In this document: one piece after another, positions 1 to 8,427 of the stretch | How positions within the stretch are numbered: the first letter of the stretch is position 1 | How the letters are laid out: each line of letters starts with the position of its first letter | Assembly (NCBI GenBank): GCA_002085285.1 | Contig: NATK01000002.1 | Location: forward strand, 1-28,767 | Source: Candidatus Latescibacteria bacterium 4484_7 | Lineage (GTDB): Bacteria; Krumholzibacteriota; Krumholzibacteriia; Krumholzibacteriales; Krumholzibacteriaceae | Direction of reading: 5' to 3' | Length of the DNA: 28,767 nucleotides | The notes under the pieces: model-generated | What the model saw: the letters and a program-made list of their open reading frames with translations, nothing else | Told to the model about the DNA's origin: nothing | The model's database searches: none | Position numbers and translations under genes: made by a program

Positions 1-60
1 TATTATCATAAGTTGAATAGTAGTGGAACTTATTCAATATTTATGCTCTCAAGAGAATAA
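1..60 (+). CDS. 3' end of an upstream (probable cassette) ORF, partial
   Basis: Frame 1 is open from base 1 (YYHKLNSSGTYSIFMLSRE) to TAA at 58-60, just before the first attC-like site. Only 19 codons are visible. Confidence 0.4.
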   Translation, partial: YYHKLNSSGTYSIFMLSRE

Positions 61-83
61 TTATTGTACGACTGAAAAGCTAC

Positions 84-216
84 TGCCGACAATTGTATAT
101 AAGGCATTGGGCGGTAAGTGGTTAAATTGAAAGATATGAACATTAATAAGCGGCATAGTAAATTGAAAGTTAGGTGTTTCAAAACGCCCAACGCCTCATA
201 TACTTGACCGTTATAT
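84..216 (+). repeat. attC-like site 1 (long type, left core box degenerate)
   Basis: Arms 95-113 GTATATAAGGCATTGGGCG and 185-203 CGCCCAACGCCTCATATAC are complementary at 17/19. They are followed by the core GTTATAT (GTTRRRY-like) at 210-216. The left box reads GCCGAC rather than a clean ..AAC. Confidence 0.7.
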
Positions 217-252
217 GAAATTTTGGGGCCTTATAAAATGGAGGCAATAATA

Positions 253-2121
253 ATGAAGCATATTTGTCTGATTTTATCGATATTGGCTCTTATTTCGCCA
301 CTATCAGCACAAGAGGGTCAAAAGGGGATTAAAATAGAGGGTAACCTCTATGAGAATGAAAGCTTAGGGATAAAGGTAAGACTTACTGAAGGAAACTGGT
401 ATTATGAAGATAAAAGCCAGGGCCCGGCGAGCGTCATTGTATTGTCAAATCCAGAAGTGGAAAAATTCAAATTCACGATTGTCATGATGCCGGCAGTGAT
501 AGGAATAAAGACTGCTGAGGATAGAGATGCACAACTTTCCTCATTTTTTGGCGATAAGTATAAGCGGGTAGAACTTGGCAAGGGAGAGATTGATAACAGG
601 GAGACAACAGTCCTTGTTTACGATTTAGTCGTAGCTGATACCTTAACTACCAGGGTTTATACTCATGTACTGGTTGTTGGAGACAATACTTACATGATGC
701 AAATTTCTGGCCCTAAGGATCAATGGGAAGCGAAATACAAACAGTTTGAATCAATATTCAACTATATCTTATTTACCGAAAGAAAGCCGGAAAGAAAGGA
801 AGTTGAAATCAAGAAGGAAGAGGAAGAAAAGCAGGCCGGGTTAACCAAGAATGCAAAAATAATACATCACCTCATAAGGATAGATGTCAATCCTCGTAGC
901 GGTGAGTTCAAGTCATCTGATAAGTTTACCATAAGGATTATAAAAGATAAGATAAAAGAAGTGGAATTCCTCCTATCCGATCTTGTAATTGATTCCATTA
1001 AACTTGGTGATGAAAATTTATCCTTTTCCATGGTAGATTATCAAGAGACGGGTAGAAAAAAGCTCACCGTTAATTTGCCCGCCGACTATGATTCGACTAC
1101 CGAGCTTACCCTGAACTTTTCTGCCCATAAGTCTGATTACCTATTTACTGCGGCGGGTAAGCTGATTGCTGGATATAATATTCTTGGACAGGTAAGGGAG
1201 AAGTCGAGTTATAGTTCCCACGTTTTATATTATCCCGTGGATGAAGATAATGACGCTGCCGGTGAGATATGGATAACCGTGCCATCAGGTTATATCGCTA
1301 TAAGTGTAGGAAAACTTGTTGATGTGGATTCAACCGAAGACAAATCTATATATCATTGGAAAACAGATATTGCTATTCCACGAATATTGCCTTTTGCTTT
1401 CGCTGTTGGTGAATACGAAAAATACTCCGCTACTACAAAGTCAGGCGTCCCAGTAGAAATTTACACTTGGAAAGTGAATGAGGAGCATGCACTCAGGAGG
1501 CTTGATTTGGCTTGTGATATTATCGATTTCTATAATGAAATATTCGGGCAGTTTCCATTTGAAAAGATTGCCATAATACATGTCACCCCAGAAAAGGGTA
1601 TAGCTGGTGTAAGCCTGCCAACTATGATTCTGCTCTCAGACATGTTTTTCACATCCGATTGCTCATATGAAATAATCAAAGAGGATGTGAGAAAATCATT
1701 CCTTGGTCCATTGGTATTGGCTGATGAAATATCACATCAATGGAATGCTTACGCTGTCGCTTTTCCTAATGAACTGGCAGAAGGAATGGCTCAGTATACG
1801 GATGCGTTGTTTGCCGAACATGTAGGTGGAAAACAAGTACTGAAAAATCACATTAAATATCACTCAAGTCTATATAAAGCAGCCATAGAAAACAATCCCG
1901 ATACACCCATAGCATCGCCTGAGATTTACAAGACCCAGGCGTATCAGGGTATTGCCTTCAGTAAGGGAGCGTTGGTGCTTAACATGTTACGCTGTGTTGT
2001 GGGTGATTCCAACTTCTTCGCCGGAATGCGACACATTTTTGAAGAATACTCTGGTAAAAAAGCGGGCTACGATGACATTAAACAGGCGATGGAGAAGTTT
2101 TATGGGGATTCTCTGGGTTAG
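253..2121 (+). CDS. Secreted M1 (gluzincin) aminopeptidase-like protein, N-terminal main part; split by frameshift
   Basis: GGAGG RBS at 240-244 and ATG at 253. Signal peptide MKHICLILSILALISPLSA. M1-like segments: HHLIRIDVNP, FAFAVGEY, FGQFPFEK, DEISHQW..EGMAQY, YQGIAFSKGALVLNMLR. Confidence 0.75.
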   Translation: MKHICLILSILALISPLSAQEGQKGIKIEGNLYENESLGIKVRLTEGNWYYEDKSQGPASVIVLSNPEVEKFKFTIVMMPAVIGIKTAEDRDAQLSSFFGDKYKRVELGKGEIDNRETTVLVYDLVVADTLTTRVYTHVLVVGDNTYMMQISGPKDQWEAKYKQFESIFNYILFTERKPERKEVEIKKEEEEKQAGLTKNAKIIHHLIRIDVNPRSGEFKSSDKFTIRIIKDKIKEVEFLLSDLVIDSIKLGDENLSFSMVDYQETGRKKLTVNLPADYDSTTELTLNFSAHKSDYLFTAAGKLIAGYNILGQVREKSSYSSHVLYYPVDEDNDAAGEIWITVPSGYIAISVGKLVDVDSTEDKSIYHWKTDIAIPRILPFAFAVGEYEKYSATTKSGVPVEIYTWKVNEEHALRRLDLACDIIDFYNEIFGQFPFEKIAIIHVTPEKGIAGVSLPTMILLSDMFFTSDCSYEIIKEDVRKSFLGPLVLADEISHQWNAYAVAFPNELAEGMAQYTDALFAEHVGGKQVLKNHIKYHSSLYKAAIENNPDTPIASPEIYKTQAYQGIAFSKGALVLNMLRCVVGDSNFFAGMRHIFEEYSGKKAGYDDIKQAMEKFYGDSLG

Positions 2122-2363
2122 AAAAAGCCGAAAAACATAAAGATAAATACTTGGTTTCTGTCCTTGTAAAACAGACACAGGGAGGAAAGCCTTTTACGAT
2201 GCCTATAGATATTTCATTCATGTCTGCCGAATGTGAGAAAACCTTTCCCAAAGTAATGGTCAACCAAAAAGAAGAGAGATTGACCTTTGAACTTGACTTT
2301 CGTCCGCAAGATGTTAGGATTGACAAAGAAGGCATGCTGTTAAAAGATGTAGTATATAAATAA
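2118..2363 (+). pseudogene. C-terminal fragment of the M1 peptidase in a shifted frame
   Basis: Frame 3 reads LEKAEKHKDKYLVSVLVKQTQGGKPFTMPIDI...DVRIDKEGMLLK, a typical M1 C-terminal beta domain. The WFFxQW segment expected after DSLG is absent. Confidence 0.6.
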
Positions 2364-2392
2364 TCGCATGTATGTTCGAGCCCCAAAACTTC

Positions 2393-2476
2393 ATATAACA
2401 GCATGTATCTGGTTCGGGCTTTCAGCGCTCATCTAAATCGCCTCCGACGATTTCAGATGCACTCAAACCGTTATAT
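2393..2476 (+). repeat. attC-like site 2
   Basis: ATATAAC at 2393-2399 and GTTATAT at 2470-2476. Arms GCATGTATCTG (2401-2411) and CAGATGCACTC (2454-2464) match at 8/11, with an inner AAATCG/CGATTT hairpin. Geometry is AAC+1 / 5+GTT, the same as site 3. Confidence 0.75.
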
Positions 2477-2550
2477 TCAGTTTGCTCCCTCGCTAAAAAT
2501 CAAAATCATGGGCCCCCGCCTTGTGTCTTAGGTATTTTTCTTGCCACAAT

Positions 2551-2565
2551 CGTAAACTTTATATA
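2551..2565 (+). promoter_or_regulatory. Putative promoter of arsR (BRE/TATA-like CGTAAAC-TTTATATA; weak TTGCCA -35 alternative at 2541)
   Basis: TTTATATA at 2558-2565 is preceded by a purine/A-rich element. It lies ~28 nt before an ATG that has no Shine-Dalgarno sequence. Confidence 0.45.
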
Positions 2566-2589
2566 TATATTGATAGTTATCAATATGCA
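2564..2589. promoter_or_regulatory. ArsR/SmtB-type 12-2-12 operator
   Basis: TATATATTGATA-GT-TATCAATATGCA has a perfect 9-2-9 core and 10/12 overall match. It sits immediately upstream of arsR. Confidence 0.65.
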
Positions 2590-2592
2590 AAT

Positions 2593-2868
2593 ATGAGAGA
2601 ATCACTAAAAATATTCAAGGCCTTATGCGATGAAACTCGGTTAAAAATAGTTGAATTTCTCCTTAGTGGAGAAAAATGTGTTTTTGAAATGGTTCCGTTT
2701 ACAAAAAGAATACAATCAACAGTTTCAGTTCAGTTATCAAAGCTTGAATATTTGGGGATTATTGGATCAAGAAGAGAGGGTAAAAGGATATATTATAAAC
2801 TGACAAACGAGAAAGTGAGAGAAATATTAAGAATACTAAATGAGAGAAACCAGGATAAATATAATTAA
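2593..2868 (+). CDS. ArsR/SmtB family transcriptional regulator
   Basis: IFKALCDETRLKIVEFL..GEKCVFEM..QSTVSVQLSKL..G....RREGKRIYY winged HTH signature. Confidence 0.9.
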   Translation: MRESLKIFKALCDETRLKIVEFLLSGEKCVFEMVPFTKRIQSTVSVQLSKLEYLGIIGSRREGKRIYYKLTNEKVREILRILNERNQDKYN

Positions 2869-2895
2869 AACATCTAAAATATTGGAGGAAGTGCT

Positions 2896-3936
2896 ATGTT
2901 AAGAGATGTAGAATGTAAATGCCAGATTGTTAAGAACTTTGCACCATCCTGGTTTGCAAGCATCATGGGAACGGGAATACTTGCTCTGACTAGCTTACTT
3001 TACTCCCAATATGTTCCTCTCCTGAAAAACCTGGCTTATGTCTTGTTCTACTTTAACATTATTCTTTTCTTTGTCTTATTAATCCCATGGATTCTTAGGT
3101 GGATATTCTTCAGAAAAGAAGCATTAAAAGATTTAGAGCATCCTGTGCTCTCAAATTTCTATGCTACGATAGCGATAGGTATGCTTGTTTTAGCAGCGGA
3201 TTTCATTGTAATTGGTAATAACATTGAGATTGGAAAGGTTTTTTGGTTTATAGGATCACTGGCTACAATATTCTTTAGCATACTCACACCATATTTAATG
3301 TTCAAAGGTGAGCATGTTAAACTTGACCACATAAATCCAGCATGGTTTATTCCACCAGTCGGACTAATTGTGATTCCCATTGCAGGAAGTTTAATTATTC
3401 CACATGTATTAGGAATGGCGCGGCAGTATGTTATATTTCTTAACTATTTTGGATGGGGCTCTGGCTTTTTTATCTATCTCGCTCTATTAGCTATAACAAT
3501 GTATCGTTTTATTCTTCATCATCCTCTACCAAACACTCTCGCTCCAACCATATGGATAAACCTTGGACCCATCGGAGCAGGGACTGTTGCATTGGTTAAC
3601 CTCATCAAAAACTCATCTTTTATAGCAGTGAAAGAACCTTTCTTCGTATTTGGATTTTTGTTCTGGGGGTTTGGTATTTGGTGGGTTATAATAGCTATTG
3701 CAATGACCCTGCACTACATAAAAAGACTGAAGCTTCCCTATGCAATGTCTTGGTGGGCTTTTACATTTCCTCTCGGAGCGTATGTAGCTGCAAGTCATAC
3801 AATCTCGTCATTATTTGAAATTCAACTAATAGATTACGTTGGTTTTGCTTTATATTGGCTTTTAGTTATTTTCTGGGTGGTTACTTTTGTAAAAACTCTT
3901 ATACGTGCATATCATGGGACGCTGTTTAAGGTTTGA
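2896..3936 (+). CDS. TDT (tellurite-resistance/dicarboxylate, SLAC1/TehA-like) transporter
   Basis: GGAGG RBS. FAPSWFASIMGTG, NPAWFIPPVG and PYAMSWWAFTFPLG motifs; about 10 hydrophobic segments. Confidence 0.88.
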   Translation: MLRDVECKCQIVKNFAPSWFASIMGTGILALTSLLYSQYVPLLKNLAYVLFYFNIILFFVLLIPWILRWIFFRKEALKDLEHPVLSNFYATIAIGMLVLAADFIVIGNNIEIGKVFWFIGSLATIFFSILTPYLMFKGEHVKLDHINPAWFIPPVGLIVIPIAGSLIIPHVLGMARQYVIFLNYFGWGSGFFIYLALLAITMYRFILHHPLPNTLAPTIWINLGPIGAGTVALVNLIKNSSFIAVKEPFFVFGFLFWGFGIWWVIIAIAMTLHYIKRLKLPYAMSWWAFTFPLGAYVAASHTISSLFEIQLIDYVGFALYWLLVIFWVVTFVKTLIRAYHGTLFKV

Positions 3937-3998
3937 TGTGATGAAAGTTGACGCTAGACATATGACATTCTGCCCAAAACCTAAGGAGATGAATTTAT

Positions 3999-5773
3999 AT
4001 GTTTGAAAAAATAAGAAAAAGGGATGGAAGAATTGTAAAGTTTGACCCCGAGAGAATTACAAACGCAATTTCTAAAGCAGGTGCAGCAACAGGTGAATTT
4101 GATAGAGATATAGCAAAGAAAGTATATTATTTACAGAGAACAGCACGCAAGAATCAGAGAAATTATATCTAAAGCCAATAACGATCTTGTAGATCAGTAT
4201 CTTAATAAAATAGATTGGGAGGTTAAAGAGAACAGTAATATGTCTTTTTCTTTACAGGGACTTAACAATTATATTTCCTCTAAAGTAAGTAAGATGTATT
4301 GGCTGAATAAAATATATCCAGCAGAGATAAGAAATGCCCATATAGAGGGTGATTTTCATATCCATGATTTGGGTATATTATCTGTTTACTGTGTTGGGTG
4401 GGATTTGTTCGATTTATTATCAGAAGGTTTTAAAGGAGCTGCGGGAAAAATAGAGAGCAAACCTGCAAAGCACTTCAGGAGTGCTTTAGGGCAAATTGTT
4501 AATTTTTTCTATACTCTTCAAGGTGAAGCTGCTGGGGCACAAGCATTTTCCAACTTTGACACTTTCCTTGCCCCATTTATTCGATATGACAATCTATCAT
4601 ATAAAGAGGTTAAACAAGCTTTACAGGAATTTTTATTTAATCTAAATGTCCCCACAAGAGTGGGATTTCAAACCCCTTTTACAAATATAACTTTGGATTT
4701 AAGATCTCTAGAGTATCTCAAAAATCAACCAGTTGTTTTTGGAGGAACGCCTCAGAAGGAAACTTACGGAGATTTCGAAGAGGAAATGATGTTGTTCAAT
4801 AAGGCTTTCTTGGAGGTTATGTTGGAAGGTGATGCAAAAGGCAGAGTTTTTACCTTCCCTATTCCTACATATAACATTACCGGAGATTTTGATTGGGACG
4901 CCGAGTTTTTGAATACGTTATGGGAGATAACTGCAAAATATGGTATTCCATACTTCTCTAATTTTGTTAATTCAGATATGAAACCAGAAGATGCAAGAAG
5001 TATGTGCTGTAGGTTAAGGCTGGACACAAGGAAATTGGAGAAAAGGGGTGGCGGACTATTTGGGGCAAATCCACTTACAGGAAGCATCGGTGTTGTATCA
5101 ATCAACATGCCGAGATTAGGTTATTTCTCAAAGGATGAGAACGAATTTTTTGAAAGATTGGACATGCTGATGCAATTGGCAAAGAATAGTTTAGAGATGA
5201 AGAGAAGAATTCTGGAAAAGCTTACAGGGCAGGGCTTGTATCCTTACACCAAGTACTATTTGAGAAATATTAAAAAACGATTTGGTGCATATTGGAAAAA
5301 TCACTTTTCTACGATAGGGTTGGTTGGATTGAATGAAGCCTGCTTAAATCTTCTGGGGGTGACTATCGGCGACAGAGAGGGTAAAGAATTTGGATTGAAG
5401 GTCTTGGAGTTTATGAAGAATAAACTTATTGAATTCCAGGAGGAGACTGGAAACAATTATAACCTGGAAGCAACCCCTGCTGAGGGGACTTCCTATCGTC
5501 TCGCGATGATAGATAAGAAGAAGTATCCTGACATAGTATGTGCAAATGAGCAAGCATTCAGAAACGGTGCAGAGCCCTTTTATACGAATTCCTCTCAACT
5601 TCCAGTCAATTATACAGATGATATATTTGAGGCTCTTGACCTGTCCGAAGTGCGATGCTACATGTGAGGTGTACTCAAGAGTTGTAGGGTATCTGAGACC
5701 CGTAAATCAATGGAATAACGGGAAAAAGGAAGAATTCAGAATGAGGAATAGTTTTAAGGTGATGACAAAATGA
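3999..5773 (+). pseudogene. nrdD: Anaerobic (class III) ribonucleoside-triphosphate reductase, disrupted in three frames
   Basis: ATP-cone start MFEKIRKRDGRIVKFD at 3999-4172 (RBS AAGGAG at 3983). The core from 4123-5667 has SMCCRLRLD and EATPAEG. The glycyl-radical tail TCPKC..EVYSRVVGYLRP is in a third frame ending at 5773. Confidence 0.88.
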
Positions 5774-6462
5774 AAATCGCCGGTTTTCAGAAATTCTCTT
5801 TGATAGACTACCCAAGTAAAATCAGTGCAATCATCTTTACCCAAGGATGTAATTTCAGATGTCCCTACTGCCATAATCCAGAACTAGTAAATCCGGAACT
5901 ATTTTCAGACACCTTAGATGAAGATTTAATACTTACTTTCTTAAGTAAAAGGATCGGCAAATTAGATGGTGTAGTTATCACGGGAGGGGAACCTCTGCTT
6001 CAGCATGATTTAATAGAGTTTATAAAAAAGGTAAAGGAAATGGGTTATCTTGTAAAACTTGATACAAATGGGAGTTATCCAGAAAATTTGGAGCGATTGT
6101 TAGCTAAAAATCTGATCGATTACATAGCAATGGATATTAAAGCTCCTCTTGAAAAATACCATAATGTTGTGCAGGCAGATGTTTGTACAGAAAAGATAAT
6201 GGAAAGCATTACGATAATTCTAAATAGCAATATAGATTACGAATTTCGAACCACAGTAGTGAAGGATCTCCTAATAGAAGATGATTTAATTTGCATAGCC
6301 AAGTTAATTAGAGGTGCAAAGAGATATGTTTTGCAAAAGTTTGTTATGTCAAAGATATTAGATAAGTCATTTGCCAGTAATGTAAAATGCTTTTCAGAAG
6401 ACGAATTAAATACCATAATAGACAAAGTGAAAAAATATGTCAGCGAATGTATTATGCGATGA
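5770..6462 (+). CDS. nrdG: Anaerobic RNR activating radical SAM enzyme
   Basis: GCNFRCPYCHN CxxxCxxC motif and ITGGEPLLQ. ATGA overlap with the nrdD tail stop. Confidence 0.92.
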   Translation: MKIAGFQKFSLIDYPSKISAIIFTQGCNFRCPYCHNPELVNPELFSDTLDEDLILTFLSKRIGKLDGVVITGGEPLLQHDLIEFIKKVKEMGYLVKLDTNGSYPENLERLLAKNLIDYIAMDIKAPLEKYHNVVQADVCTEKIMESITIILNSNIDYEFRTTVVKDLLIEDDLICIAKLIRGAKRYVLQKFVMSKILDKSFASNVKCFSEDELNTIIDKVKKYVSECIMR

Positions 6463-6525
6463 TTACCTGAGGTTTTGGGCGGAACGCTTCGTCGCTTCGC
6501 TTTTTGTCCTCACTTAGTTTGGGTC

Positions 6526-6604
6526 ATATAACACGGGCTATACGGCTCGTTTCACTTGCCCAAATTTGCTAACGCAAACTTTGTATAGCCCGAATACGTT
6601 AAGT
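6526..6604 (+). repeat. attC-like site 3
   Basis: ATATAAC at 6526-6532 and GTTAAGT at 6598-6604. Perfect 10-bp arms CGGGCTATAC (6534-6543) and GTATAGCCCG (6583-6592), with an inner TTTGC-TAAC-GCAAA hairpin. Confidence 0.78.
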
Positions 6605-6867
6605 GGAACGCCCGAATTGATAAAAACTATATCGAGATTGAGGTGGCCTAATATATGATCAATATAGAGAGAAAAGTAAAGGTAGGTGTAAGATTGCCTT
6701 TGCAGGTTTTATCCTGCTCATAGTCACAAGCGGTTCAGGATGCCAAAACAACAATTATCACCCTACCAAGCCGCAGCAATCACTTTTTCTTCTCCCCGCA
6801 TCGGCACAAATACTTTTTGTTTCTAACGCGGCGCATAGTGTAGCGCGTCTTTCAAATGATAGAATGG

Positions 6868-8427
6868 CTATACCAATGTGTATTTGAACTCGTCCGCGTC
6901 GATTCCGTATTTTTTCATCTTGTACCTCAAAGCACCTCGGCCGAGCCTCAGGAGCCTCGCCGCTTCTGTTACCCGCCCCCCGCTCTTTTCGAGGGCCGCT
7001 ATGATGAGTCCCTTTTCCACCTCGTCTATTGCGATCCCTTCGGGGGGGAAATCGATTCGCACCGTCCCTGCTTCTTTTTCGATGTCGAGAGACGATGTGC
7101 CGACCGAAGTGCCGTTCGGAGTGGTGCCCGAAGTGCCGTTCGGAGTGCCGTCCGGAGCGCCGTTCGGAGTGGTGCCCGAAGCGCCGACGGTTGATTCTAT
7201 AGGCAGGTCTTCGGGCTTTATCTTACCCGACCTGTTCAGAAGCACCGCCCTTTCGATGACGTTTATGAGCTCGCGGATATTCCCCGGCCAATGGTATTCC
7301 TGCAATGCATCGAGTGCTTCTTCCGAGATGGTCACACCTCCCTTGTTCAATCTCGCTGCAAAGCGGCTTACGTATTCGATGGCGATGGGGCGAATGTCTT
7401 CTTTCCTCTCTCTAAGCGGTGGCAGGTTGATCTCGACCACATTGAGTCTGTAGTATAGATCCTCCCTGAAACGGCCCTGGGCCACCTCTTCTTTCAGGTT
7501 TCGGTTTGTCGCCGAGATGATTCTCACGTCCACAGGGAGGAATTCGACACCGCTCACGCGTCTTATGGTCCTCGTATCGAGGAACTTGAGGAGCTTCGCC
7601 TGGAGGGCATAATCTATCTCGGCGATCTCGTCGAGAAATATAGTGCCTCCGTCTGCGACTTCAAAGAGGCCTGCCTTCTCTTCACGAGCATCGGTGAATG
7701 CACCTTTTTCGTGTCCGAAGAACTCGCTCTCCAGGAGATTGCGTGGTATCGCTGCACAGTTGACCTCTACGAAGGGACCGCTGCGACGCGGACTTGCCTC
7801 GTGTATCGCCTTTGCGAGGGAGCCCTTGCCCGTTCCGCATTCACCCGTTATTATGACAGACGTGCATTCACTTTCAGCGACCTTTAGCGCGAGTTCCTTG
7901 ACCTCCATGATCTTCGGGCTTTCGCCGATTATCTGATCGAAGCCTTCGTCAATCTCCTTATTGGGATTGAGGCTCTGTTTCAGCCGCCTCTTTCCGAGCC
8001 CGGTTGCGATGCGGGACAGCATCTCTTCGAGGTCCTTGTATGAGTAAGGTTTGAAAAGAATATGCCTTGCACCGAGCTCTATGCCCAGTTTGTCACCGCC
8101 GTGAAATTCTCCGGGGATGATAAGGATGAGCTGAACCTTCTTGTTCTTCCTGAGGTACATGGACAGGGTGTCTTTTTCTTTTTGAAAGGCCTCCTCGGTT
8201 TCCGGCACGGAATAGATCAGAAGATGCTTGTTCCCGTTCTTATCACCTGCTGCGGCCTTTTTCCCACTGCGAGCGCTGACAGGGTTGGCATTCCGCCGCG
8301 CTGCCCGTATCAACTCACCGGCATCCGCGTAGGAATCCACACTCCATCCGTGTTCGCCGAAGAACAGCTCGAGCGAGCTGCGCTCATCGTCGTCTGCGGC
8401 TACTATATTCAGTCCGAGGGATATCAT
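6868..8427 (-). CDS. Sigma54-dependent enhancer-binding protein (NtrC family) with degenerate receiver domain
   Basis: Walker A GECGTGK, NCAAIP, GAFTDA, IFLDEI, RFREDLYYRLNV, WPGNIREL and a C-terminal Fis-type HTH. The ORF is open from TTG 8448; ATG 8427 is preferred as start. Confidence 0.9.
   Translation of the reverse strand: MISLGLNIVAADDDERSSLELFFGEHGWSVDSYADAGELIRAARRNANPVSARSGKKAAAGDKNGNKHLLIYSVPETEEAFQKEKDTLSMYLRKNKKVQLILIIPGEFHGGDKLGIELGARHILFKPYSYKDLEEMLSRIATGLGKRRLKQSLNPNKEIDEGFDQIIGESPKIMEVKELALKVAESECTSVIITGECGTGKGSLAKAIHEASPRRSGPFVEVNCAAIPRNLLESEFFGHEKGAFTDAREEKAGLFEVADGGTIFLDEIAEIDYALQAKLLKFLDTRTIRRVSGVEFLPVDVRIISATNRNLKEEVAQGRFREDLYYRLNVVEINLPPLRERKEDIRPIAIEYVSRFAARLNKGGVTISEEALDALQEYHWPGNIRELINVIERAVLLNRSGKIKPEDLPIESTVGASGTTPNGAPDGTPNGTSGTTPNGTSVGTSSLDIEKEAGTVRIDFPPEGIAIDEVEKGLIIAALEKSGGRVTEAARLLRLGRGALRYKMKKYGIDADEFKYTLV
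7097..7190. repeat. 12-bp imperfect tandem repeat (about 7.8 units) inside the activator gene
   Basis: Units such as GTGCCGTTCGGA and GTGGTGCCCGAA. They encode GTTPNGAPDGTPNGTSGTTPNGTS between the AAA+ domain and the HTH. Confidence 0.9.

Follow-up and report, generated by a model that had tools for sequence, protein, structure and literature searches.

An anaerobic ribonucleotide reductase operon in a low-GC block

The DNA analyzed here (the window, 28,767 nucleotides) is the whole of contig NATK01000002.1 (C111) in the metagenome-assembled genome (MAG) of Candidatus Latescibacteria bacterium 4484_7 (GCA_002085285.1; 1.53 Mb, GC content 0.51, 62% complete), and its element of interest is nrdDG, an operon for a class III ribonucleotide reductase and its activase. 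GC content is 0.33 to 0.41 over positions 1-6500 and 0.50 to 0.55 beyond, with the step at about 6600 in the window profile. Every gene in the low-GC block (1-6604) lies on the plus strand, namely those for an M1-family peptidase, ArsR, a TDT/SLAC1-family transporter, NrdD and NrdG. The operon consists of a broken nrdD (3999-5773) and nrdG (5770-6462), and is followed by a conserved noncoding segment that we call module A (6466-6522) and by an attC-type recombination site (6523-6604). Ordinary host genes start at 6868 (a sigma-54 activator, UDG, a radical-SAM protein, a methyltransferase, and others). Very probably, positions 1-6604 are the distal, low-GC end of an integron-like cassette array in the chromosome of this GC-0.51 bacterium, and nrdDG is one discrete, promoterless, two-gene cassette within it.

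Boundaries of the nrdDG cassette

The limits of the cassette emerge from a comparison with other contigs (loci, genomes, and runs carry our own labels, L, G, and X). From the M1-peptidase cassette up to and including nrdDG, the window is collinear with a JGI metagenome contig (L013), whose NrdD is 92% identical. In L013, arsR-TDT is absent, and the attC of the M1-peptidase cassette is followed at once by GTTATATGACATTCTACCCAAAACCTGAGGAG-ATG, with an intact box GTTATATGAC. The 5' G|TT of nrdDG was found behind four different attC contexts: the one in L013; a distinct attC of its own in an Aerophobetes-labelled contig (L047), where the cassette begins GTTATTTGAC; an unrelated attC after a series of small open reading frames (ORFs) in L014-L016, where it begins GTTATACACC; and another attC in contigs of runs X3/X4, which read ...ACCCACAAAC GTTATATGAC (these runs are a small share, and only the loose ends of their contigs were used). 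On the 3' side, the homology between the window and L013 ends at G|TTA (6598-6601), continuing as host DNA in the window and as another cassette in L013. These G|TT-bounded breaks in homology define the unit between the two G|TT sites as a discrete transposable block, 2,963 bp long when intact. In order, it comprises G|TTATATGAC, a leader of 27 nt that holds the ribosome-binding site (only 27 nt lie between this site and the crossover), the genes for NrdD (698 aa) and NrdG (230 aa), module A, and an attC whose end is G|TT.

A preliminary description of this DNA, made from the letters alone, had already taken nrdDG for a cassette of its own, and the contigs above agree with it: L013 holds, after the M1-peptidase attC, the intact GTTATATGAC that it predicted, and homologues with an upstream attC occur in further independent arrays (L047, L014-L016, and X3/X4). 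No homologue was found in an ordinary chromosome contiguous with arsR-TDT. There is a chromosomal homologue labelled Thermotoga (L017/L019/L048; 84% DNA identity), with nrdDG between an Fe-ADH gene and an M20 peptidase gene; its homology is confined to 3984-6463, beginning with the ribosome-binding site and closing with the stop codon, and no attC is present. NrdD relatives of 86-93% identity are mostly on short contigs binned to very different phyla.

The terminal attC (6523-6604, plus strand) has R'' GTCATATAAC at 6523-6532, an inner stem formed by L'' GGGCTATAC and L' GTATAGCCC, and R' GTTAAGT at 6598-6604, the array ending at G|TT (6598|6599). Its bottom strand folds with a z score of -3.46, matched by 0 of 200 shuffles. 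R'' reads (GTCAT)ATAAC, and the spacers, of 2 nt and 6 nt, are atypical. A strict attC pattern finder missed the sites of the window because their R' boxes are hybrid, and a sequence search of 40 relatives with the terminal attC (6500-6610) gave no match, such sites being too divergent for BLAST. The unit has the features that define an integron cassette: an attC end with AAC/GTT boxes and a hairpin, G|TT boundaries with different neighbours, and a promoterless layout in the orientation of the whole array.

Complementarity between the two ends

The box GTCATATAAC that closes the block is matched in reverse complement at 8 of 10 positions by GACATATGAC (3957-3966, plus strand), the mismatches falling on the GTT triplet. 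This decayed R' box contains ATATGAC, the remnant of the GTTATATGAC that L013 reads there, and its GTT crossover triplet is gone; the GAC is probably a piece of the 3' untranslated region (UTR) of the TDT gene rather than a mutated GTT. An 8/10 match within the 62-nt upstream spacer arose in 2.6-4.3% of random or shuffled controls, so this match is weak when taken alone. Stronger is a 19-bp inverted repeat that brackets nrdDG. Its left arm (3968-3986, plus strand) lies in the cassette leader and overlaps the ribosome-binding site AAGGAG (3982-3987), its right arm (6466-6484) begins 4 nt past the nrdG stop codon, and 17 of the 19 positions are complementary. Neither 5000 random genomic segments nor 5000 shuffles gave a single repeat of at least 17/19 between the nrdDG flanks (best shuffle, 15/19). 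The preliminary description had reported both the box match and the repeat abutting the nrdD ribosome-binding site, with exact positions; of the two, the repeat was never equalled in controls, and the box match by itself appears at the chance rate given above. The repeat is retained at 15/19 in L013 and at 16/19 in L047.

Long complementary ends are common to this family of sites, in which the 15-20 nt at the start of a cassette have their complement in the 15-20 nt ending in R''. Over the last 20 nt, the match is 19/20 in the M1 cassette, 16/20 in the L013 copy, 15/20 in L136, and 14/20 in the PEMT cassette. We also observed that the complementarity of cassette ends extends beyond the 7-bp R box over 13-19 of the last 20 nt (window, L013, L136, L143, and L261), and that it is 15/15 in the first cassette of a relative, G008. 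For nrdDG, the reverse complement of the leader (CCTTAGGTTTTGGGCAGAAT-GTCATATAAC) matches CCTGAGGTTTTGGGCGGAA-(38 nt)-GTCATATAAC; hence, box and repeat are collinear segments of a single long stem that the remainder of module A (6485-6522) breaks up. In its likeliest role, the repeat would lengthen the base of the site when this is folded in the excised circle. Neither a promoter nor an NrdR box is evident ahead of nrdD, as had been noted before: sigma-70-like matches are at background (28 found versus 23.7 +/- 4.2 expected), and there is no match to the NrdR-box consensus near the gene.

State of nrdD and nrdG

The window nrdD (plus strand; PF03477, and PF13597 at 530 bits) comprises the ATP-cone N terminus (3999-4121), the core (4122-5640), and the C terminus (5641-5773), spread over three frames: 3999-4172 (start of the ATP-cone), 4240-5667 (core), and 5540-5773 (C terminus, with CPKC and the glycyl-radical motif RVVGYLRPV). 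Compared with L013, L040, and L041 (alignment to the 698-aa P0002), the gene has two frameshifting deletions, of 125 bp after 4121 and of 197 bp after about 5640. Missing from the protein are about 42 aa in the ATP-cone region and, ahead of the C terminus, about 66 aa, the latter with the first Cys pair of the zinc ribbon. A continuous NrdD frame (ATP-cone, NRDD core, Cys4 zinc ribbon, and radical Gly) is absent from the window and intact in L013, L040, and L041. On the other hand, nrdG (plus strand) codes for an unbroken radical-SAM activase of 230 aa, with the cluster motif CNFRCPYC and hits to PF04055 (78 bits) and PF13353. The beginning of this gene overlaps the stop of nrdD, an arrangement shared by all relatives, and the protein is identical on two other contigs. 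From the sequence, the window nrdD reads as a pseudogene and nrdG as an intact gene. The preliminary description passes over the break in nrdD, which another note of the same reader records. Next to nrdG, the ENA scaffold L040 (1668-1717) has a second, slightly different copy of the last ~37 nt of the gene plus 37 unrelated nt before module A, probably an assembly bubble between two cassette alleles.

The 197 bp missing from the window are present in L040 (99.5-99.6% identical) and L041 (99.8-99.9%), and an X2 contig has about 195-197; no near-identical contig covers the site of the 125-bp deletion. Of the words, run X1 holds 70% and run X2 66%, and the depth of the host genome in X1 is about 7x. 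The population clearly includes an nrdDG copy with an intact 3' part, and the deletions may be strain variants or assembly errors. One explanation goes further and supposes that both nrdD deletions, perhaps together with one of 55 bp in the M1-peptidase gene, are assembly errors or rare variants, and that the organism has an intact, functional nrdDG cassette. L041 and L040, both near-identical to the window, span the same array-host junction and hold the 197 bp, as does the X2 contig with its extra 195 nt; such scars had been recorded across the whole contig in another note of the same reader, and the nrdR of the MAG (contig C154) is split over two frames as well. However, the microhomology at the deletion junctions is far shorter than an assembler k-mer, so that an assembly shortcut is not expected, and the window shows no deletion anywhere in the 10 kb of host sequence that it has in common with L040. 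We give this explanation somewhat less than an even chance. The split gene on C154 (G000 contig C154:3797-4202, minus strand) is the host nrdR homologue, and about 10 profile positions are missing from it.

Fusion with the arsR-TDT insert

Between the M1-peptidase cassette and nrdDG, the window carries an insert of 1,487 bp (2471-3959, plus strand) that has no attC of its own. Behind an operator-like palindrome (near 2568-2587) it contains arsR (2593-2868; PF01022), and then the gene of the TDT/SLAC1-family transporter (2896-3936; PF03595). Relative to L013, the insert extends from 2473-2476 to 3959-3963, with ATAT at both flanks. One X1 contig joins 2472 directly to 3960, which shows that the empty form exists in the same sample, and a 159-nt X1 contig identical to the window over 3863-4021 shows that the occupied right junction is real. 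The left junction is a perfect G|TTATATTCAG, while the right one reads GAC-ATATGAC. In two other loci with this gene pair (L020 and L023), the 3' UTR continues for at least 90 further homologous nt, but homology to the window ends near 3951, some 15-25 nt past the TDT stop; the truncated UTR points to a deletion that removed the GTT as well.

With no GTT at the right junction, nrdDG has lost its own 5' crossover site, whatever the history of the insert, and can no longer be excised alone. The fused arsR-TDT-nrdDG unit (2471-6598; 4,128 bp) is bounded by one G|TT at 2470 and another at 6598, and its R'' ATATAAC still pairs 7/7 with the R' GTTATAT at 2470. Such a unit may still be mobile, and nrdDG may now be transcribed by read-through from the arsR promoter.

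The preliminary description had supposed that the attC of a preceding arsR-TDT cassette was mostly deleted. This claim is supported in part. In its favour, the unit is 3' truncated compared to L020 and L023, and the insert sits exactly within the R' box, with a perfect G|TTATAT on the left; against it, no convincingly folding attC was detected downstream of TDT in L020, L023, L263, or L265. That arsR-TDT lost an attC of its own is plausible, not proven. The R'' of any such site would be expected to pair with GTTATATTC, and in L020 a sequence that is the exact complement of the arsR-TDT unit start, GAATATAAC, lies 210 nt past TDT.

Alternatively, arsR-TDT was never an attC-bearing cassette and entered the R' box by illegitimate or secondary-site recombination, with no attC deleted. 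Besides the missing attC in those four loci, this would fit the ordinary chromosomal contexts of the pair in L020-L022, the single clean, ATAT-flanked indel of 1,487 bp that separates the occupied from the empty form, and the similarity between the window and L023, which reaches about 20 nt upstream of the arsR-TDT G|TT. It accounts less well for the perfect left junction, the shortened 3' UTR, the GAATATAAC of L020, and the recurrence of the first 18 nt of the unit behind an attC-like site in L023, and we regard it as unlikely. TDT transporters 84-91% identical to that of the window are found in the ordinary chromosomal contexts of L020-L022 and on many short contigs, in bins from Nanoarchaeota to Thermotogae; by this distribution, arsR-TDT itself appears to be widely exchanged.

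The 3' crossover of the nrdDG cassette

Module A (6466-6522, plus strand), which includes the right arm of the inverted repeat, closes with GTTTGGG. No cassette copy of nrdDG is without it, and in L013 it is also found 3' of a radical-SAM cassette. The nrdDG cassette could, alternatively, end at the module A GTT (6516), in which case 6517-6598 would be a separate geneless cassette of 82 nt or a swapped attC. Module A travels with nrdDG in all copies, while the attC that comes next differs in L014 and L047, and in the radical-SAM cassette of L013 the module forms a small hairpin resembling an attC, in which AACGG pairs with CCGTT. But in the nrdDG copies module A has no AAC-type R'', and R'' GTCATATAAC is a perfect 10/10 complement of the GTTATATGAC start in L013 and X3/X4, a signature of both belonging to one cassette. 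The hybrid attC of L047 indicates, moreover, that attC halves can be exchanged by other routes. A boundary at 6516 is improbable. Hybrid sites of this kind (L047:215-312, z -1.2; L023:812-925, z +0.3) have the L'' half of one type and the L' half of another and do not fold, which suggests an exchange within the conserved loop and not at G|TT.

Several observations count against the view of nrdDG as a cassette in a resident array, with its crossover at the terminal attC. The 3' attC is not the same in all nrdDG copies (divergence sets in after 6533 in L014 and after 6519 in L047), so that the true 3' crossover could be the module A GTT at 6516. Several attC sites on related contigs, including the nrdDG attC of L013 (z -0.3), fold no better than shuffles, from which it follows that part of the cassette pool has decayed. 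The 19-bp repeat shows no compensatory changes among the window, L013, and L047, and the changes that occurred lower the pairing. Lastly, the array head is beyond the contig edge, as C111 starts within the array, and no array recombinase of either type discussed below was found in the 62%-complete genome, which has only XerC (in a trmFO-xerC-hslV context).

Neighbouring cassettes and the junction with the host

The contig start cuts a cassette that is closed by an attC-like site at 95-216 (plus strand; assigned by sequence and fold), with arms at 95-113 and 185-203, R' GTTATAT at 210-216, and the crossover at 210/211. Upstream of ACC-G|TTATATG this site is unlike that of L013, and homology to L013 begins exactly there. 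In a relative of the same order (L254; G032:C232, a contig end), we observed a homologue of this first attC (74% identical), after which come GTTATATGAAATTACGAGCCC, a thioredoxin cassette, and host genes of higher GC content.

Next comes the M1-peptidase cassette (211-2470, plus strand; PF01433), collinear with L013 at 93-95% identity and shared with it from exactly G|TTATATG, behind a different attC in each. Its ORF (223-2121) is split from a C-terminal remainder (2151-2363) by a 55-bp deletion near 2116. The gene is broken differently per copy, the places compared being 2116 and about 599 in the window and 2590 and 4035 in L013; L013 lacks instead 73 bp matching window positions 599-671. The attC of this cassette (2380-2476, plus strand) has R'' CATATAAC at 2392-2399 and R' GTTATAT at 2470-2476, and L013 has the same site. 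Its bottom strand forms a hairpin with a z score of -2.68 (matched by 1 of 200 shuffles), and the 19/20 complementarity mentioned above is between the first 20 nt of the cassette (210-229) and 2380-2399.

The array-host junction is crossed, with identical sequence, by L040 (a 79-kb scaffold), L041, and an X1 contig spanning 6527-7300; the array is resident and the junction is real. The possibility that the low-GC block is a misassembled foreign piece, or an ordinary chromosomal region of a low-GC organism, as the sharp GC step at ~6600 and the binning of the closest relatives of the cassette genes to many different phyla might suggest, is already contradicted by these three independent assemblies and by relatives (G027 and G032) in which the same kind of low-GC array abuts GC-rich host genes, and it deserves hardly any credence. 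Beyond the junction, at 7104, a 24-bp unit of a Gly/Thr/Pro-rich repeat in the sigma-54 activator gene is missing from L040 and the X1/X2 contigs, a variation in repeat copy number.

A short recombinase associated with this attC family

Taking as canonical IntI those proteins that exceed the 265-bit cut-off of TIGR02249, we found it in 20 of the 41 genomes searched (relatives plus the genome itself). In G008 and G001, 20 kb on the 5' side of intI are ordinary GC-rich genes, the arrays being on the 3' side of the integrase. The attC sites of the window family are linked to another enzyme. Their loop motif, GCTACGCTTCGC..CCAAATT, is present in at least 120 metagenome contigs, and among the 80 contigs fetched a tyrosine recombinase adjoins the array in fitting orientation in L136, L143, L165, and L202/L152, with remnants in L166, L171, and L191. 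These recombinases score 196-226 bits on TIGR02249 (cut-off, 265), and in alignment they lack the ~40-residue insertion specific to IntI but retain the IntI-like C-terminal SPLD motif. An additional N-terminal domain of ~90-130 aa (FPY.P.Y..K.K.I.G.RW.PE...WS.P.S) was seen on three of the recombinases, at L136:10161-11381, L165:2652-3770, and L143:1474-2256. As to NF040815, considered as a sign of archaeal origin, it also gives the host XerC 219 bits; being nondiscriminating, it was not used.

Homologues of the short recombinases (48-55% identity) were found in 13 of 24 genomes searched of the same family and 6 of 8 of the sister family, often at contig ends, and canonical IntI genes coexist with them in the same host family. 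One such locus is that of a near-complete relative (G027; L262:682-16000), where a short recombinase of 303 aa (227 bits on TIGR02249) precedes an attI-like GTTATGC and a run of low-GC cassettes, all on the plus strand, over ~14 kb. The attC sites of these cassettes share the extended R' of the window, closing with GTTATATGA..., and one of them folds with a z score of -5.1. An attI-like site was seen only in loci other than the window: this one, L143, and L136. An array of the same type, headed by a short recombinase, is found at L261:800-2400 (G008).

Given the shared extended R' GTTATATGA and the recombinase adjoining this attC family, the window array is best assigned to the short-recombinase type, which here occurs in a sigma-54-bearing bacterium with a GC of ~0.5 and in its relatives. 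The preliminary description had not recognized this array type. Mechanistically, a tyrosine recombinase would cut at the G|TT of the folded attC, excising or inserting the nrdDG cassette. To judge from G027 and the metagenome contigs, the cognate enzyme of the R' GTTATATGA sites would be the short IntI/Xer-like one, without the IntI additional domain. Once the arsR-TDT unit sits in the upstream R' box, nrdDG would be movable only as part of the fused unit.

Relation to known integrons and reductase operons

Integron cassettes usually carry short accessory genes, while the cargo here is a 2.96-kb two-gene operon of core metabolism. Like them, the units of the window end in a folded imperfect palindrome with AAC/GTT boxes and a G|TT crossover, and the same unit stands behind different neighbours in other sediment metagenomes; unlike them, the ends are complementary over 15-30 nt instead of ~7, and the R''-L'' spacer is 1-2 nt. 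The linked recombinase also departs from the usual integron in having no IntI additional domain, and there is no integrase on contig C111.

Class 1 integrons contain fused cassettes, pairs that became one when the attC between them was lost. In the window, the site between the units was likewise lost, leaving joint movement only, as the 4,128-bp unit; in contrast to those, the loss also took the first nucleotides of the downstream cassette, and the former attC of the upstream unit is only putative. As for the cargo, the class III (anaerobic) nrdDG operon is found in bacteria, archaea, and phages (Escherichia coli, phage T4, Thermotoga maritima). The window operon has the same parts in the same order, namely an ATP-cone, the NRDD core, and, at the C terminus, a zinc ribbon plus the glycyl-radical motif, followed by the overlapping activase gene, and full-length relatives of its NrdD (698 aa) are 90-93% identical. 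It differs from such operons in being packed between attC-type sites without an NrdR box or a recognizable promoter, and in its two frameshifting deletions.

The closest published frame is that of Ghaly et al. 2022 (PMC9668308), who described archaeal integrons, clusters of attC sites lacking integron integrases (CALINs), and cross-domain recruitment. The window array resembles sedentary chromosomal integrons and CALINs, those archaeal integrons included, in its low-GC tandem units, all on the same strand, mostly promoterless, and beside host DNA. In the library searched, we found no paper that brings together integron, attC, and nrdD; the earlier judgment that the capture of nrdDG as a cassette would be very unusual is a fair one. 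What is new is a core-metabolism operon as a cassette; the kind of element is already known, and the window copy is fused and apparently decayed.

A 3-kb cassette with a central enzyme of nucleotide metabolism and its activase widens the known cargo of these arrays. The gene pair is available in three comparable forms, as cassette copies, as an attC-less chromosomal homologue (84% DNA identity), and as a copy on a virus-like contig (87% protein identity), which is rare material on how cassettes arise. The window also preserves a case of fusion: with the loss of a recombination box, two units turned into a single one. Finally, a cassette family linked to a short recombinase without the IntI domain, in a bacterial genome of normal size, makes the need for that domain in attC recombination testable.

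Origin and spread of the gene pair

In a quick NrdD tree (disregarding three rows, from Syntrophaceae, Cyanobacteria, and Cloacimonadota, that were wrong ORFs with very long branches), the cassette-borne copies, the Thermotoga-type chromosomal copies, and protein P0018 form one clade with an approximate likelihood ratio of the Shimodaira-Hasegawa type (SH-aLRT) of 99. The phylogeny proposed in the preliminary description thus places the cassette clade apart from that of the host family, with 67-69% amino-acid identity between the two. P0018 comes from a 78.6-kb JGI contig (L130:1-12091), on which nrdDG (87% protein identity) is beside genes for a dCMP deaminase, a nucleotide pyrophosphohydrolase, a UvsX-like recombinase, and a PriCT_1 primase-type protein, a context that looks viral or mobile-element-like. 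It seems, from this tree and these contexts, that the nrdDG pair belongs to a mobile clade, also present in Thermotoga-labelled chromosomes and on one virus-like contig, and not to the nrdD lineage of the host family.

In the host family nrdD is patchy (14 of 24 genomes searched), and no class I or II large subunit was found in the incomplete genome of the organism itself. We tentatively propose, as an idea on which the balance is still somewhat unfavourable, that a pool of long-stem cassettes, nrdDG among them, is moved by the short recombinase and circulates among bacteria, archaea-labelled bins, Thermotoga-type chromosomes, and virus-like contigs of hydrothermal sediments. If this is true, a core operon for dNTP synthesis would be exchanged across phyla as a plug-in module by an undescribed branch of integrons, and a host lineage with a patchy nrdD would gain anaerobic dNTP synthesis through such cassettes.

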